A stretch of DNA of 64,000 nt, taken from NCBI RefSeq assembly GCF_016026235.1, contig NZ_CP065613.1; one strand, 5' to 3'. The position numbers are program-made. This stretch comes from Escherichia coli. GTDB lineage: Bacteria; Pseudomonadota; Gammaproteobacteria; Enterobacterales; Enterobacteriaceae. This document shows, one piece after another, positions 42,001-54,000 of the stretch. Within the stretch, counting starts at the first letter, position 1. Each line of letters starts with the position of its first letter.

Positions 42001-45000
42001 TATTGCGGTTAATTAACATGTCCGGTATTCCATTTTAAAATAAGATAAAAAAGAGTCGGCATAGTAATGCTTACAATTTCTCCGGTGCAAGATTCATATT
42101 TATATAGTAATATATAAAATTATATATAATTGGGCTGTTGCGATGACAAAATTACAACTTAAGTACCGGGAGTTAAAAATTATCTCGGTAATCGCTGCCA
42201 GTGAAAATATCAGCCATGCCGCGACTGTACTTGGCATCGCACAGGCCAACGTCAGCAAATACCTTGCTGATTTTGAATCAAAAGTGGGTTTAAAAGTCTT
42301 TGACCGAACCACCCGGCAGCTGATGCTCACACCTTTTGGTACCGCGCTGTTACCGTACATCAACGACATGCTGGACAGAAACGAGCAGCTTAATAATTTT
42401 ATTGCAGATTATAAGCATGAGAAACGTGGTCGGGTCACCATCTACGCCCCAACCGGCATAATTACCTATTTATCCAAACATGTAATCGATAAAATTAAAG
42501 ATATCGGTGATATCACCTTATCGCTAAAAACCTGCAATCTTGAGCGTAATGCCTTTTATGAAGGCGTCGAATTTCCTGATGATTGTGATGTTTTAATCAG
42601 CTATGCCCCACCAAAAGATGAATCGCTGGTTGCCAGTTTTATTACCCAATATGCCGTAACCGCTTATGCCAGCCAGCGCTATCTTGAGAAACATCCCATT
42701 AGCCGTCCTGACGAACTCGAACATCACTCCTGTATTTTGATCGACTCGATGATGATCGACGACGCGAATATCTGGCGCTTCAACGTCGCTGGGAGTAAAG
42801 AGGTGCGGGATTATCGCGTGAAGGGAAATTACGTTTGCGACAACACGCAATCGGCGCTGGAGCTGGCACGAAATCACCTGGGGATTGTGTTTGCGCCAGA
42901 CAAAAGTGTGCAGAGCGATCTGCAAGACGGCACGCTGGTGCCCTGCTTTCAGCACCCGTATGAATGGTGGCTGGATCTGGTGGCTATCTTCCGTAAACGG
43001 GAATACCAGCCCTGGCGGGTCCAGTATGTGCTGGATGAAATGCTGCGTGAAATTCGCCACCAGCTTGCTCAGTCGCAGCAACTGCGGCCTGAACAAGCGG
43101 CGGAAAGCGAAGATTAATGATCGAGATAAAGGTAATGCACCCAGCTGGTCATGCGTAATAACACTTTGCGCATCACCGAGACATGGCTGAAATGATCAGA
43201 GTAGACCGCCACCTGGGCGTAAATACCGTCTGGTAAAGCGCTCAAATCAGTGTGCTCATTCAGTTCAATGGTCGCGATAACGCCATCTGAACCCGGCGCT
43301 GTGTTTAACGTCTGTAAGGTGCCGGTCGACTGATAAGCTCCGCTGGGAACAGCTGGACTAATGGCTGCCAGCTTACCGCTGAACACTTTGCCTGGCAGAG
43401 CGTTAAATACCACTTCCGCATCATCGCCGGGAGCCAGGCGCAGCAAGGAGTTCTGACGGAACTGCGCCACGATTTGTCGTTTCTGATCGGGTATAAACAC
43501 CATCACCGGACGTAGCGGCAGCGACGCGGCATAGGTACCCGGACGAATCAGCACCTGGGTCACATAACCATCGCTCGGCGCACGCACTATCGTCTGCTCA
43601 AGGTTATATTTTGCTTCCGCGAGCTGCGCTTTCAGGCTGGCGATTTGAGAATGTTCACCCAGCACCAGGCTATCCAGCTGGCTCTGGATCTGTTTTTGTT
43701 CCGCCGCTGATGACTTCACGGAGGCTTCCTGCGCCAGATAATTTTGCCGCGCCACATCGATATCGCGTTCTGAAAACGGGTTTACTTTCGCCTGGCTGCC
43801 GCGTGCGTAACGCTGATACTCTTTAGCGAATTTATCCCGCGTGGCCTTTGCCTGCTGAGTATTCGCCGCCATCTCATCTAACTCTGCGCCCAACGCCCGC
43901 TGTTTATGTTCTGCGGTAACGATATCCGCCATCAGCCGATCCACCCGCGCCTGATAACGCGTCGGGTCCAGTCGAAATAGCACTTCACCTTTTTTAATCA
44001 GCGTATTTTTCTTATCCGTCACTTCAATCACCACACCAGTCACCTGTGGGACAACAGGAATAGAAATAACCGCTTTTTGCGCTTTAAAGGTATACGGATG
44101 GTTATAGTTCATTAACAGAATTAGACCGCTGACAATAAATATTCCACCCAGGGCCGCTGTGGGAATGGTCCATTTATTTACGGGAATTTTGAAGATCTTA
44201 AACATTGCCCATGCAAAAGCCACATAGGTCAAAATAATCAGTAAATCCATAAGTATTACTCGGCAGAAGAGGATTTGATGTCGGCGAGCTGTTTCTCCAG
44301 CCCGGCAATGCGCTGTTGCAGTTGCATAACGGATGAATCATGGCTTTGCATTCCCCATCCCCGCTCCGGGCGGTAAAGCGTGGCCCAAATCCACAAAAAC
44401 GGCCAGATAACATGTAACGTAAAAAGACTCACCCAACCAGCAACATGAATGGCGTCGGCATGAGGATGATTACGTTTTTTAGCAATCAGGTAGGGAATAT
44501 CATGTAAAATAATAATCCCATAAAATATCACCAGAAATACAAAAATAAGCACTCCCAGCGCAAAATAGTCTAGGAACATATTTCCCTCAAAGAATATAAA
44601 AAAGAACAATTAACGCATATTATGAAATGCCATGATGCAGTGCAATTTCCTTATTTATATAACGACATATTGTTTTTATATACTTTCTGAAGTGTGCTGC
44701 GTGGCTTTTCAACAGGTCGAGGTTTATCATATTGAAATAATGGAACTATTGACCAAGCTAATGAATAACTCCAGTAAAACATCCACAGTACAGATAAAGC
44801 GTATTAAACCTTCAATTATCTACCGTTTATTGCTGATTGGCCTCGAAACGCCACTGGTGATTTACGGCCTGGTTTGCCCGCTCACCATCGAAACGCGAGA
44901 TTAAACTCCTGGCAAAACACGCCCCAGAAACGCACTTCTGTTGGCGTAGTCTGGGTTATTGCGCACGTAGGTTTAAAACGTAAATTGTAACAACGTGCGC

Positions 45001-51000: not shown

Positions 51001-54000
51001 CGCACGATCGCGATGTCCGCGTCCGGCGTCGTCCAGATCGTACTCGAGGGTCACTGGCGAACGCATAGCCTGCGCAACGGCTTCCACCGCGGCTTCCGCC
51101 TGTAAAGCTCGCCCAAGGTTGGTATGCAGCACGGTTCCCGTCAGGTTGATCACCGGACGCAGCGCACTCTGCGCCTCTTTCGTCAACCGGGCATCGACTT
51201 CTTGCGCCCAGTTTTCACACCACGCAGGCAGCGTCTGGCTGCCACGAATCACTTCTCGCGCTTCGTCGAGCATCTGACGCAACAATTCCACCACGCGGGT
51301 GTGACCATAAGTATCACGCAAAGAAAGGAAGGAGCTATCGCGCAATAAGCGATCAATAGCCGGAAGTTGACTATAGAGGGAACGCGTTTCGGTTGTCATA
51401 GGAAACCTGGCTGATCAAGGCCCTCTCACACGGAGAAGGGCGTTTAACATAACCACGGATTGTAACGTGAGATGGGTCAGGAGGACATATCGCGCATCAA
51501 GCCTTTGGCGGTTCGGTGCGAGCAAAACTTTCGCGGCTAAACAGGTTTTCGACCAGTTTGACTAAGTGTGGGCGGTCGACACACCAACCTGGCGCAACGC
51601 GGCGGAAATTGAGATATCCGACGGCACAGGCAATAGCGATAGTCGCCAGATTGACCGTATCGGTTTTGAGTGTGCCATCGACCAGATATCCTTCCAGCAC
51701 ATCCAGACTGCGGTTGATTTTCTCCCGCTGGCGTAACAATTCATCTTCAGACTGCTGCGCCGCTGGACGCGCCTGTTCACGCACCGATACCAGCCCAGCA
51801 TCCATAATGCCATCCGCCAGTGCCTCAATTTTGCGCACCCGCAACGACTCCAGCGGATCGCGCGGCAACATCGCCGGAGCGACATTCATTAATTCAATAT
51901 ATTCAGCGATGATCGGCGAATCAAACCAGCATTCGCCCTCTTCGGTCACCAGCACCGGCACTTTTCCTAACGGGTTAAATTGCGCCACGCCGTTGTCCGC
52001 GTTATAGGGCAGTTCATTAATAAATTCGAAAGTTATGCCCTTTTCTAACAACAGAATAGAAAGTTTGCGTACAAACGGGCTGGTGTAGCTACCGACGAGT
52101 TTCATGCCGAGTCCTTTGTGCGAGGAAAAATATCAGTATGGCTCAGGCTCACGCAAAACACAGGTGATATAAGTCTCAATGATCCAAATAAAGATAATGC
52201 ATCCAGCTGGTCATTCTTAGCAGCACTTTTCGCATCACCGAAACATGGCTGAAATGGTCGGAGTAAACTGCCACCTGGGCGTAAATGCCGTCGGGTAAGG
52301 CATCGATATCATCGTTAGGGTCCAGTTCAATGGTTCCCAGCACACCGTCCGTGCCGGGCACGACCGTTAATGATTGCAATACCCCCTGCGCCTGATAAGA
52401 ACCGCCTGGCACGACAGGTAAAATACTGGTCAGTTTGCCGTGGAACACCTGCCCAGGTAGCGCGTTAAACACCACTTCCGCATCATCGCCAGGTTTCAGA
52501 CGTAACAGCGAGTTTTGCCGAAATTGGGCGACAATTTGCCGTTTTTGCTCGGGGATGAAGACCATCACCGGACGCAGCGGCAAGGCAGCGGCGTATGTGC
52601 CTGGGCGGATCAGTACCTGAGTGACGTAGCCATTGCTCGGTGCGCGAATGACGGTCTGTTCAAGGTTATATTTTGCTTCTGTAAGTTGCGCTCTTAAGCT
52701 CACAATCTGCGATTGCTCGCCGTTAACCATACTGTCGAGCTGGCTCTGGATCTGCGCCTGCTCCGCCACCGAGCCTTTCACCAGCGCATCCTGCGCGAGG
52801 AAATTTTGCCGCGCATCGTCGATGTCACGTTCCGAGAACGGATTCACCGCCGCCTGGCTGCCTTTCAGATAACGTTGATAATTTTTAAACAGACGGTCGC
52901 GCTCCGCTGAAACCTGGGTGGTGTTGGCCTGCGCTTCAGTGAGCTGCGCGCGCAGCGTCTTTATATTATGCGTCGCCGTCATCAGGTCAGCCTGAAGTCT
53001 GTCAACTCGCGCCTGGTAACGAACCGGGTCGAGCTTAAAAAGCACCTCGCCCTTTTGAATAAGCTGATTATTCTTGTCAGTGACTTCAGTAACAATTCCC
53101 GTCACCTGTGGCGTGATGGGGATCGCTATCACAGCCTTTTGCGCGGTAAAAGTGTAAGGGTGGTTGTAGTTCATCAACAAAATCAAACCACTCACCAGAA
53201 ACACGCCTCCCAGCGCCGCCGTCGCCAGCGTCCACTGATTCACCGGAATACGAAAGATTTTAAAGACCGCCCACGCCAGCGCCACATAAGTTAAAACAAT
53301 CAATAGATCCATAATTAGATCTCCGGGAACGTGGAATAGTCAGTCTTTTTCTCGGCGGCGAGTTGGTGCTCCAGCCGGGAAATTCGGTCAGAAAGTGCGG
53401 CGATTTCCGGGTCAGTCGCTTTCTCCTGCGACGCAACATGTGACTGCATACCCCAGCCACGCTCCGGTTGATAGAGCGTCGCCCAGATCCACAGAAACGG
53501 CCAGATAACATGCAGAGTAAACAGGCTCACCCAGCCCGCCGTATGAATAGCGTCGGCATGGGGATGGTTGCGCTTTTTGGCAATCAGATAAGGGATGTCA
53601 TGTATCGCGATGATTCCATAAAAAATCACCAGAAAGACGAAGATCAGCACTCCCAACGCGAAATAGTTTAGAAACATATTTGCCTCGGATTCACGTTTAT
53701 CAGTGTTGTTTTTTGGCTGGCAGCCAGAAGGGAGTCAGGCTGATATTTTGACAATAATCCGGGTTCGCGATTCTCGCCATAACACCAAAGAATAATTTTT
53801 AGAGGTGATGAGTTGCTTAGTTACATAACGATTGTATGACGAAGGCATAACATGCTGTAGATCACATCAGGTGAACGCCGTAAGAAAATATCTTGTGATT
53901 CAGATCACAAAGATTCAACAAACCATCAAAACAAAAATGTGACATTAGTCACATTTAAATGCCATTTTTAGCGAAAATCGCCGCCTTGTGGCTTTTTTAC

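Follow-up and report, generated by a model that had tools for sequence, protein, structure and literature searches.

The question raised by this locus, a stretch of 64,000 nucleotides from Escherichia coli (contig NZ_CP065613.1 of assembly GCF_016026235.1; hereafter the window, meaning the whole stretch), is why it carries two similar two-gene modules, yiaVW and yibHI, and whether they unsettle the genes that lie between them. Each module encodes a DUF3302 protein and a periplasmic adaptor of the HlyD type. All four genes already carry names in the annotation of thousands of E. coli genomes, from which the paralogy can be read directly. An earlier note on this DNA had proposed that the repeated modules could mediate deletion or duplication of the intervening block, and that the retention of both copies suggests sub-functionalisation. 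We consider it likely that the modules are paralogous operons of ancient origin and that the chromosome around them is an ordinary E. coli one, a description that is evolutionary and structural in kind. The data presented below show that yibIH is the conserved core copy and yiaWV an accessory copy, lost from 30% of E. coli as part of a yiaTUVW block bounded by repetitive extragenic palindromic (REP) elements, and that the two copies had separated before Escherichia and Citrobacter diverged.

Genes were called from a listing of open reading frames (ORFs) and from the RefSeq annotation of syntenic E. coli genomes, which gave the same names in the same order; coordinates are window positions unless a locus label such as L004 is given. 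The accessory module consists of yiaW (44256-44579, minus strand; 324 nt in RefSeq), which encodes a 107-aa DUF3302 inner-membrane protein (PF11742) from an ATG at 44579 preceded by GAGG, and yiaV (43114-44250, minus strand), which by its ORF, Pfam matches and RefSeq name encodes a 378-aa EmrA-like periplasmic adaptor of the HlyD/membrane fusion protein (MFP) family. The stop of yiaW lies 5 nt upstream of the start of yiaV. The conserved module consists of yibI (53315-53677, minus strand), which encodes a 120-aa DUF3302 inner-membrane protein (PF11742), and yibH (52176-53312, minus strand), which by its ORF, Pfam and NCBIfam matches and an AlphaFold2 (AF2) model likewise encodes a 378-aa EmrA-like periplasmic adaptor, the stop of yibI lying 2 nt upstream of the start of yibH. 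The description of paralogous two-gene modules in direct orientation is therefore borne out, with yiaW-yiaV at 44579-43114 and yibI-yibH at 53677-52176, both on the minus strand and 9,062 bp apart. In each module the DUF3302 gene is translationally coupled to the adaptor gene. Among the loci examined the pair was found across Gamma- and some Alphaproteobacteria; the distance from the DUF3302 stop to the adaptor start was -1 to +5 nt in 76 of 79 pairs, and the adaptor gene lay directly 3' of the DUF3302 gene in every locus where the contig reached past the latter.

The proteins of the two modules are far more alike than their genes. YiaV and YibH are identical at 290 of 378 residues (77%) in a gapless BLASTP alignment (E = 0), and YiaW and YibI at 85 of 113 (75%, E = 4e-62). 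The adaptors had been described as near-identical along extended N- and C-terminal portions. This holds for the C-terminus, where the last 30-codon window (residues 346-375) is 97% identical, as is a mid-protein window at residues 256-285, but not for the N-terminal 60 residues, which are 77-90% identical, and identity falls to just 47-50% in the coiled-coil middle (about residues 106-135). Conservation between the two extends to the hairpin tip and the membrane segments. In the DUF3302 proteins the core (the first 84 codons) has 90% identity, and the tails at the C-terminus diverge in both length and sequence. The upstream regions of yiaWV and yibIH also differ. At the DNA level the modules can be aligned end to end over 1,517 nt with 69.4% identity, their exact matches reaching 20 nt at most. 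Identity at third codon positions is 43.5%, pS between the paralogues is 0.77 and dS is undefined owing to saturation. The paralogue dN of 0.18 exceeds that of yibH orthologues between E. coli and Yersinia or Serratia (0.12), and the same codon is used at identical residues with a frequency of 0.43, equal to the value for E. coli-Citrobacter yibH orthologues. Both copies are under purifying selection, with dN/dS of 0-0.035 within E. coli and 0.04-0.08 between genera or paralogues. Gene conversion between the paralogues was considered, and no conversion tract was found when the frequency of identical codons at identical residues was compared between paralogues and orthologues in 30-codon windows; the rise to 0.62-0.65 towards the C-terminus was matched by orthologues (0.56-0.68), pointing to constraint. 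Since the synonymous sites are saturated and gene conversion is undetectable, homologous recombination can no longer use this DNA as a substrate.

The two modules flank aldB (45123-46661), yiaY (46826-47977), selB (48167-50011), selA (50008-51399) and yibF (51497-52105), all on the minus strand and together forming the intervening block (45123-52105), as both the ORFs and the annotation of syntenic genomes agree. That the modules act as direct repeats driving RecA-dependent deletion or tandem duplication of this block is an idea that their shared orientation and end-to-end alignability would favour, and it is one that we regard as exceedingly improbable. In E. coli, recombination by RecBCD and RecA needs a minimal processing segment of roughly 23-27 bp of exact match, which the 20-nt longest run does not reach; the frequency of recombination also falls steeply with mismatches, and a divergence of about 30% is far beyond the tolerance set by mismatch repair. 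The earlier note had named DNA identity too low for recombination as grounds for abandoning its own proposal, and on calculating the pairwise identity we found the DNA too divergent.

The genome survey gave the same answer. It covered 5,426 complete E. coli genomes through megablast summaries and sampled rows, so that rare events confined to a handful of genomes might escape it. The whole region was matched in 5,425 genomes, as was the inner block (45100-52110), the genomes being the same ones because the block query is nested in the region query. No genome among the 5,426 kept a module without the intervening block, and the cases of partial coverage that were inspected were all mediated by insertion sequences (IS). 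Full-length selA was found in 5,425 genomes at 5,426 places in total, so that at most one genome has a second copy. This single genome may be a case of block duplication and to that extent counts against the conclusion. The synteny survey thus revealed no deletion between the modules and no more than one candidate duplication. Neither the identity and exact-run length of a recombinogenic direct repeat nor natural breakpoints inside the repeats were found, the variants examined being IS-, REP- or island-mediated. We take this as a clear negative result on repeat-driven instability around the selAB locus.

IS elements, REP elements and inserted islands underlie the rearrangements examined at this locus. 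In FDAARGOS_943, the closest complete genome to the window (100% identical over yibHI and selA, and 99.8% over 38000-41528), an IS1 deletion extends from yiaT' to yiaY' (L005, 8638-9802). In ECCHD184 an IS5-family deletion has removed yibH and most of yibI (L084, 12952-14090), and in CFSAN064036 an IS1 deletion extends from yiaO to yiaW (L085, 7141-8086); the three deletions are mutually independent. Islands account for further differences. K-12-type strains carry a rhsA island of roughly 8 kb (rhsA, yibA, Rhs fragments and yibG; L004, 25221-32821) between yibF and yibH, where the window has a spacer of merely 70 bp (52106-52175). A 1.3-kb Fic-family gene lies between aldB and yiaY in many strains, among them ST131, UTI89, O157:H7 and GF3-3 (L002, 10714-12009), and is absent from K-12 and from the window, where the aldB-yiaY gap spans about 46662-46825. 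The accessory module is affected by the presence or absence of yiaT-yiaU-yiaV-yiaW as one unit of 3.85 kb in E. coli (41204-45055). In ST131 this segment is missing as a single block, and UTI89 does not have it either. Its breakpoints, at about 41190-41230 and 45040-45100, both fall inside palindromes resembling REP elements or bacterial interspersed mosaic elements (BIMEs), and ST131 has two REP copies about 40 bp apart where the segment is missing. In strain 3347558, hicAB replaces yiaTUVW.

A neighbouring AraC-MFS-GH127 cluster (MFS, major facilitator superfamily), which lies upstream of yiaT (39155-41158 and upstream), varies independently of yiaTUVW. It is present in the window and in ST131, reduced to pseudogene remnants in K-12 (L004, 13851-14144) and absent in UTI89, where araD abuts aldB (L083, 8782-9524).

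The two modules differ greatly in how widely they are held within the species. yibHI was found in 5,406 of the 5,426 complete genomes (99.6%, missing from 0.4%) and yiaVW in 3,800 (70%), the latter being absent from 1,626 (30%). Among the strains checked, yiaVW is missing from ST131 and UTI89, both of phylogroup B2, and in Nissle 1917 the match to the region begins beyond yiaVW. K-12 carries both modules. The same asymmetry is seen between genera. Synteny was compared over 73 loci in species-representative genomes among the matches listed, so that a genus not listed (Salmonella, for example) is not evidence of module absence. The arrangement mtlA-yibIH-yibF-selAB is preserved in Escherichia, Citrobacter, Klebsiella, Raoultella, Enterobacter, Kluyvera, Leclercia, Lelliottia, Atlantibacter, Trabulsiella and Pseudescherichia, and also in one Salmonella enterica contig. 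Among these 73 loci, aldB-yiaWV-yiaU-yiaT was found only in Escherichia (including E. whittamii), Citrobacter and Pseudocitrobacter, and in Enterobacter, Leclercia, Lelliottia and Silvania aldB is followed directly by yiaU-yiaT with no yiaWV between. From the distribution of the two arrangements over these genera it follows that yiaWV came to lie beside a pre-existing yiaU-yiaT and is at least as old as the split between Escherichia and Citrobacter. An obligate four-gene yiaT-yiaU-yiaV-yiaW cassette was considered and rejected, since Enterobacter, Leclercia and Lelliottia keep aldB-yiaU-yiaT without yiaWV and since the reported targets of YiaU are yiaT and the waa operon.

How the second copy arose is a separate matter. 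Either local duplication followed by faster divergence or horizontal acquisition of a homologous module is possible. Trees were built by neighbour-joining (NJ) only, with 100 bootstraps. The YiaV clade was monophyletic in 100 of 100 replicates, was sister to Escherichia YibH in none, and branched outside all of the sampled enterobacterial YibH-type proteins. Such a position would be expected if an ancestor shared by Escherichia, Citrobacter and Pseudocitrobacter had gained yiaWV by horizontal transfer, with insertion between aldB and yiaU, rather than by local duplication of yibIH. The paralogue dN, which is higher than that between E. coli and Yersinia orthologues, and the adjacency of aldB and yiaU-yiaT in Enterobacter, Leclercia and Lelliottia fit the same account, as do a third copy elsewhere in one Citrobacter strain and a Pantoea copy on a plasmid. 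Against it, no lineage with a closer YiaV-like protein came to light as a donor; the shared orientation, the 9-kb distance from yibIH and the equal length of 378 aa fit local duplication with accelerated divergence; and NJ trees are prone to long-branch artefacts. We consider horizontal acquisition rather unlikely. The same trees also limit the case for local duplication. The clade of other enterobacterial YibH-type proteins was recovered in only 55 of 100 bootstraps and long branches could account for the deep position of YiaV, and for these two reasons duplication in situ cannot be separated from acquisition.

Additional DUF3302-adaptor pairs were observed at unrelated sites. Citrobacter sp. 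MGH106 carries its third copy on supercont1.1 (L055, 10001-11481), the Pantoea copy is that of plasmid pSOD02 in Pantoea sp. SOD02 (L067), and Serratia grimesii has a divergent second copy (L073). These extra copies at unrelated sites indicate that the module moves or duplicates repeatedly. Within the genus, yibH of E. whittamii (L012, 10366-11502) has only 82.5% DNA identity to yibH of the window, with a dS of 1.25, which is high for a within-genus comparison; E. albertii groups with E. whittamii in the tree.

Whether the two copies do different things bears on the proposal of sub-functionalisation. The asymmetry in retention fits a core copy and a dispensable accessory copy at least as well as it fits sub-functionalisation. 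Taken together, the retention asymmetry, the dissimilar upstream regions and the divergence of the DUF3302 tails speak for a degree of difference between the copies, and the conserved hairpin tip and membrane segments, as far as sequence can indicate, argue for the same basic activity in both. Whole-word searches of the literature gave no functional characterisation of yiaV, yiaW, yibH or yibI, and yibH and yibI are listed in a 2024 survey of the y-ome (PMC11551758). Some phenotypes have been reported. The yibI promoter was up 5.6-fold in urine, and a yibI deletion in UTI89 had a competitive index of 0.33 in urine and adhered less to bladder cells (PMC5404293). Deletion of yibH in Klebsiella pneumoniae led to fewer plaques by evolved phages (PMC11796411). 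An IS1 insertion in yiaW was found in macrophage-evolved E. coli, and a yiaW::aph mutant equalled its ancestor in phagosome maturation, the phenotype tested (PMC5495878). A further paper cites yiaW deletion as raising the efficiency of Ca2+-mediated transformation (PMC12844161).

The finding that yibHI is core and yiaVW accessory bears on the reading of such knockouts, since the sole fitness phenotype found, that of yibI, comes from UTI89, which naturally lacks yiaVW and hence has yibHI only. That phenotype would suit redundancy, in which yiaVW is a dispensable back-up that is lost without cost, and so would the absence of yiaVW from 1,626 genomes including successful B2 lineages, the ancestral behaviour of yiaW::aph in macrophages and the conservation of hairpin-tip and membrane segments between the copies. 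Purifying selection on yiaV is strong where the gene is present (dN/dS 0.035 within E. coli, and 0.04-0.05 against Citrobacter and Pseudocitrobacter), however, and the gene has been kept since before the Escherichia-Citrobacter split; the upstream regions and the length and sequence of the DUF3302 tails differ as well. Redundancy is thus a possibility that we take seriously, although we lean against it.

Turning to the proteins, the Pfam domains CusB_dom_1, HlyD_D23 and HlyD_3 (PF00529, PF16576 and PF13437, with cutoffs of 26.5, 30 and 22.2 bits) matched YiaV with 54.7, 44.8 and 27.8 bits and YibH with 56.7, 42.1 and 33.2 bits. By these domains YiaV and YibH belong to the periplasmic adaptor/membrane fusion protein family (HlyD; TCDB 8.A.1), and YiaV is listed in TCDB as 8.A.1.1.4, an orphan MFP entry (PMC10971958). 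No named subfamily could be assigned to the adaptors with NCBIfam, as the scores lay below the cutoffs of TIGR00998 (EmrA/EmrK; 112-113.5 against 390.8), MdtN (111-113 against 376), AaeA (63-75 against 400) and EmrA (52-57 against 563). The AF2 model of YibH (mean pLDDT 84) has helices at residues 2-19 and 28-50, strands at 53-94, hairpin helices at 97-152 and 161-218, and a barrel at 250-350. In terms of domains the model comprises two hydrophobic helices at the N-terminus, a lipoyl domain, a hairpin whose arms measure about 56-58 residues, a beta-barrel and a C-terminal helix (355-374). The modelled lipoyl domain, alpha-hairpin, beta-barrel and N-terminal anchor together make up the adaptor fold, with no membrane-proximal domain, and the top 50 PDB fold matches to the model were all adaptors or putative efflux adaptor proteins. 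Across 28 members, with identities down to 29-49%, conservation of the adaptor is highest in the N-terminal membrane helices and in the C-terminal helix rather than in its periplasmic domains.

The DUF3302 partners matched PF11742 with 146.7 bits (YiaW) and 140 bits (YibI) against a cutoff of 32, over profile positions 1-76 of 77, and form a family of modest size (819 clusters at 50% identity). In the AF2 model of YibI, helices 2-35 and 41-68 form a hairpin that is followed by a linker and a C-terminal helix (90-115); the AF2 models are monomers and carry no interface information. The two long transmembrane helices of the DUF3302 proteins are joined by an invariant loop motif, HDIPY..AKKRNHPH.DAIH, whose three Lys/Arg residues suggest, by the positive-inside rule, that the loop is cytoplasmic. 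For the DUF3302 protein and the adaptor alike, the predicted topology has the N-terminus outside and a loop in the cytoplasm. The PDB matches for the DUF3302 profile, only weak ones to rhodopsin-type transmembrane segments (E about 5e-4), were judged to be chance similarity of membrane helices. In the wider neighbourhood of the pair, homologous proteins of about 220-260 aa are encoded directly upstream of the DUF3302 gene in three unrelated loci (L062, 9193-9861; L073, 9289-9960; L079, 9070-9849), with lipoprotein-like N-termini in both of the translations read (L062 and L073), and a LysR-type regulator lies near the pair in 6 of 18 diverse loci.

We propose that the DUF3302 protein and the adaptor may associate through their conserved membrane segments to form an oligomeric adaptor complex anchored in the inner membrane. 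In those enterobacterial forms that have a hairpin of EmrA length, it would extend to an outer-membrane channel, TolC for instance, and it could act in export or in maintenance of the envelope. The signs of TolC-type bridging are indirect, namely a hairpin that aligns with that of EmrA without large gaps and a single metagenome contig in which the order is DUF3302-adaptor-OEP with no pump gene. This physiological mechanism, comprising the complex, the docking to a TolC-type channel and the role in export or the envelope, is one that we only infer, and we hold it tentatively, as somewhat less probable than its opposite. Several observations weigh against it. No inner-membrane transporter family (RND, ABC, MFS or FUSC) recurs beside the pair over the 18 diverse loci, the enterobacterial neighbours being mtlA, yibF, aldB and yiaU, and a tblastn search with an OEP query over the 73 genome loci gave no gene for an outer-membrane factor (OMF) within 10 kb of the pair. 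Large ORFs lying downstream of the pair in Aeromonas and Pseudomonas appeared unlike efflux components, their translations having been read by eye and not scanned with family models. Furthermore, the hairpin is mostly deleted in members from Pseudomonas, Aeromonas and Ferrimonas and in two metagenome members, so that not every member of the family can reach an outer-membrane channel.

In another account, the DUF3302 protein and the adaptor are a self-contained envelope system without a pump, the adaptor oligomer and the DUF3302 helices themselves forming the inner-membrane unit. It would explain why the pair is the sole conserved unit over the 18 loci, why adaptor conservation peaks in the two N-terminal transmembrane helices and the C-terminal helix, and why the metagenome locus with its OEP gene has no pump. 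On the other hand, the pair has no recognisable energy-coupling element, a partner pump may be encoded elsewhere, just as TolC is encoded apart from the tripartite pump operons of E. coli, and an OMF gene adjoins the pair in that one metagenome locus only, as opposed to none of the 73 genome loci. We consider a pump-less system unlikely, and we find it equally hard to favour its more specific form, an autonomous two-protein module with two diverged E. coli copies, each pairing specifically with its own DUF3302 partner. A role in anti-phage defence was also considered and rejected, there being no PADLOC-DB match for three of the proteins and two weak matches of coiled-coil type for YibH (E about 0.005). 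A y-ome module that is always a tight DUF3302-adaptor pair with no conserved pump gene provides a concrete starting point for the study of its function.

Two further genes complete the accessory block. yiaU (42143-43117, plus strand) encodes a LysR-type regulator (Pfam HTH_1 and LysR_substrate) for which the name LpsR has been proposed, and yiaT (41279-42019, minus strand) encodes an outer-membrane protein of the MipA/OmpV family (Pfam MipA, 175 bits). YiaU (LpsR) regulates yiaT and the waa operon, and yiaVW is not mentioned in that report (PMC9068703); yiaU probably lies outside the yiaWV module, and both yiaU and yiaT are neighbourhood context. The genes yiaU and yiaV run towards each other, with a 4-bp overlap between their 3' ends (43114-43117), and a 2025 paper on ExcludonFinder, which deals with overlapping transcription between neighbouring genes, mentions yiaV.

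Of the known systems, the closest is EmrAB-TolC of E. coli. EmrA (PDB 8zal/8zar) was the best PDB match by sequence (E = 1.7e-11, over residues 54-285 without large gaps) and also the best fold match to YibH (E = 3e-21, TM 0.64-0.69). Both have a membrane anchor, a lipoyl domain, a long alpha-hairpin and a beta-barrel, and both are without a membrane-proximal domain. The identity is just 18-20%, however, and the EmrA/EmrK model scores 112-113 against its cutoff of 390.8. EmrA itself has a single transmembrane anchor, whereas YiaV and YibH have two N-terminal transmembrane helices together with a conserved C-terminal helix. The partner gene is also different, being a DUF3302 gene with no emrB-like MFS gene adjoining. 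MdtN (E = 1.7e-32) and AaeA (2e-17 to 5e-21), from the MdtN-MdtO-MdtP and AaeX-AaeA-AaeB systems, were among the nearest NCBIfam adaptor models, and in aaeXAB a gene for a small membrane protein precedes the adaptor gene. The scores are far under the equivalog cutoffs (113 against 376 and 63-75 against 400), and unlike aaeXAB and mdtNOP the YiaV and YibH adaptor genes are not followed by a gene for a FUSC-type pump. As a pair, the two modules can be compared with other old paralogous efflux operons of E. coli, such as emrAB and emrKY. Those operons include a transporter gene, whereas yiaVW and yibHI have none and lie only 9 kb apart, but in both cases one genome holds duplicated adaptor operons that are similar as protein and not as DNA.

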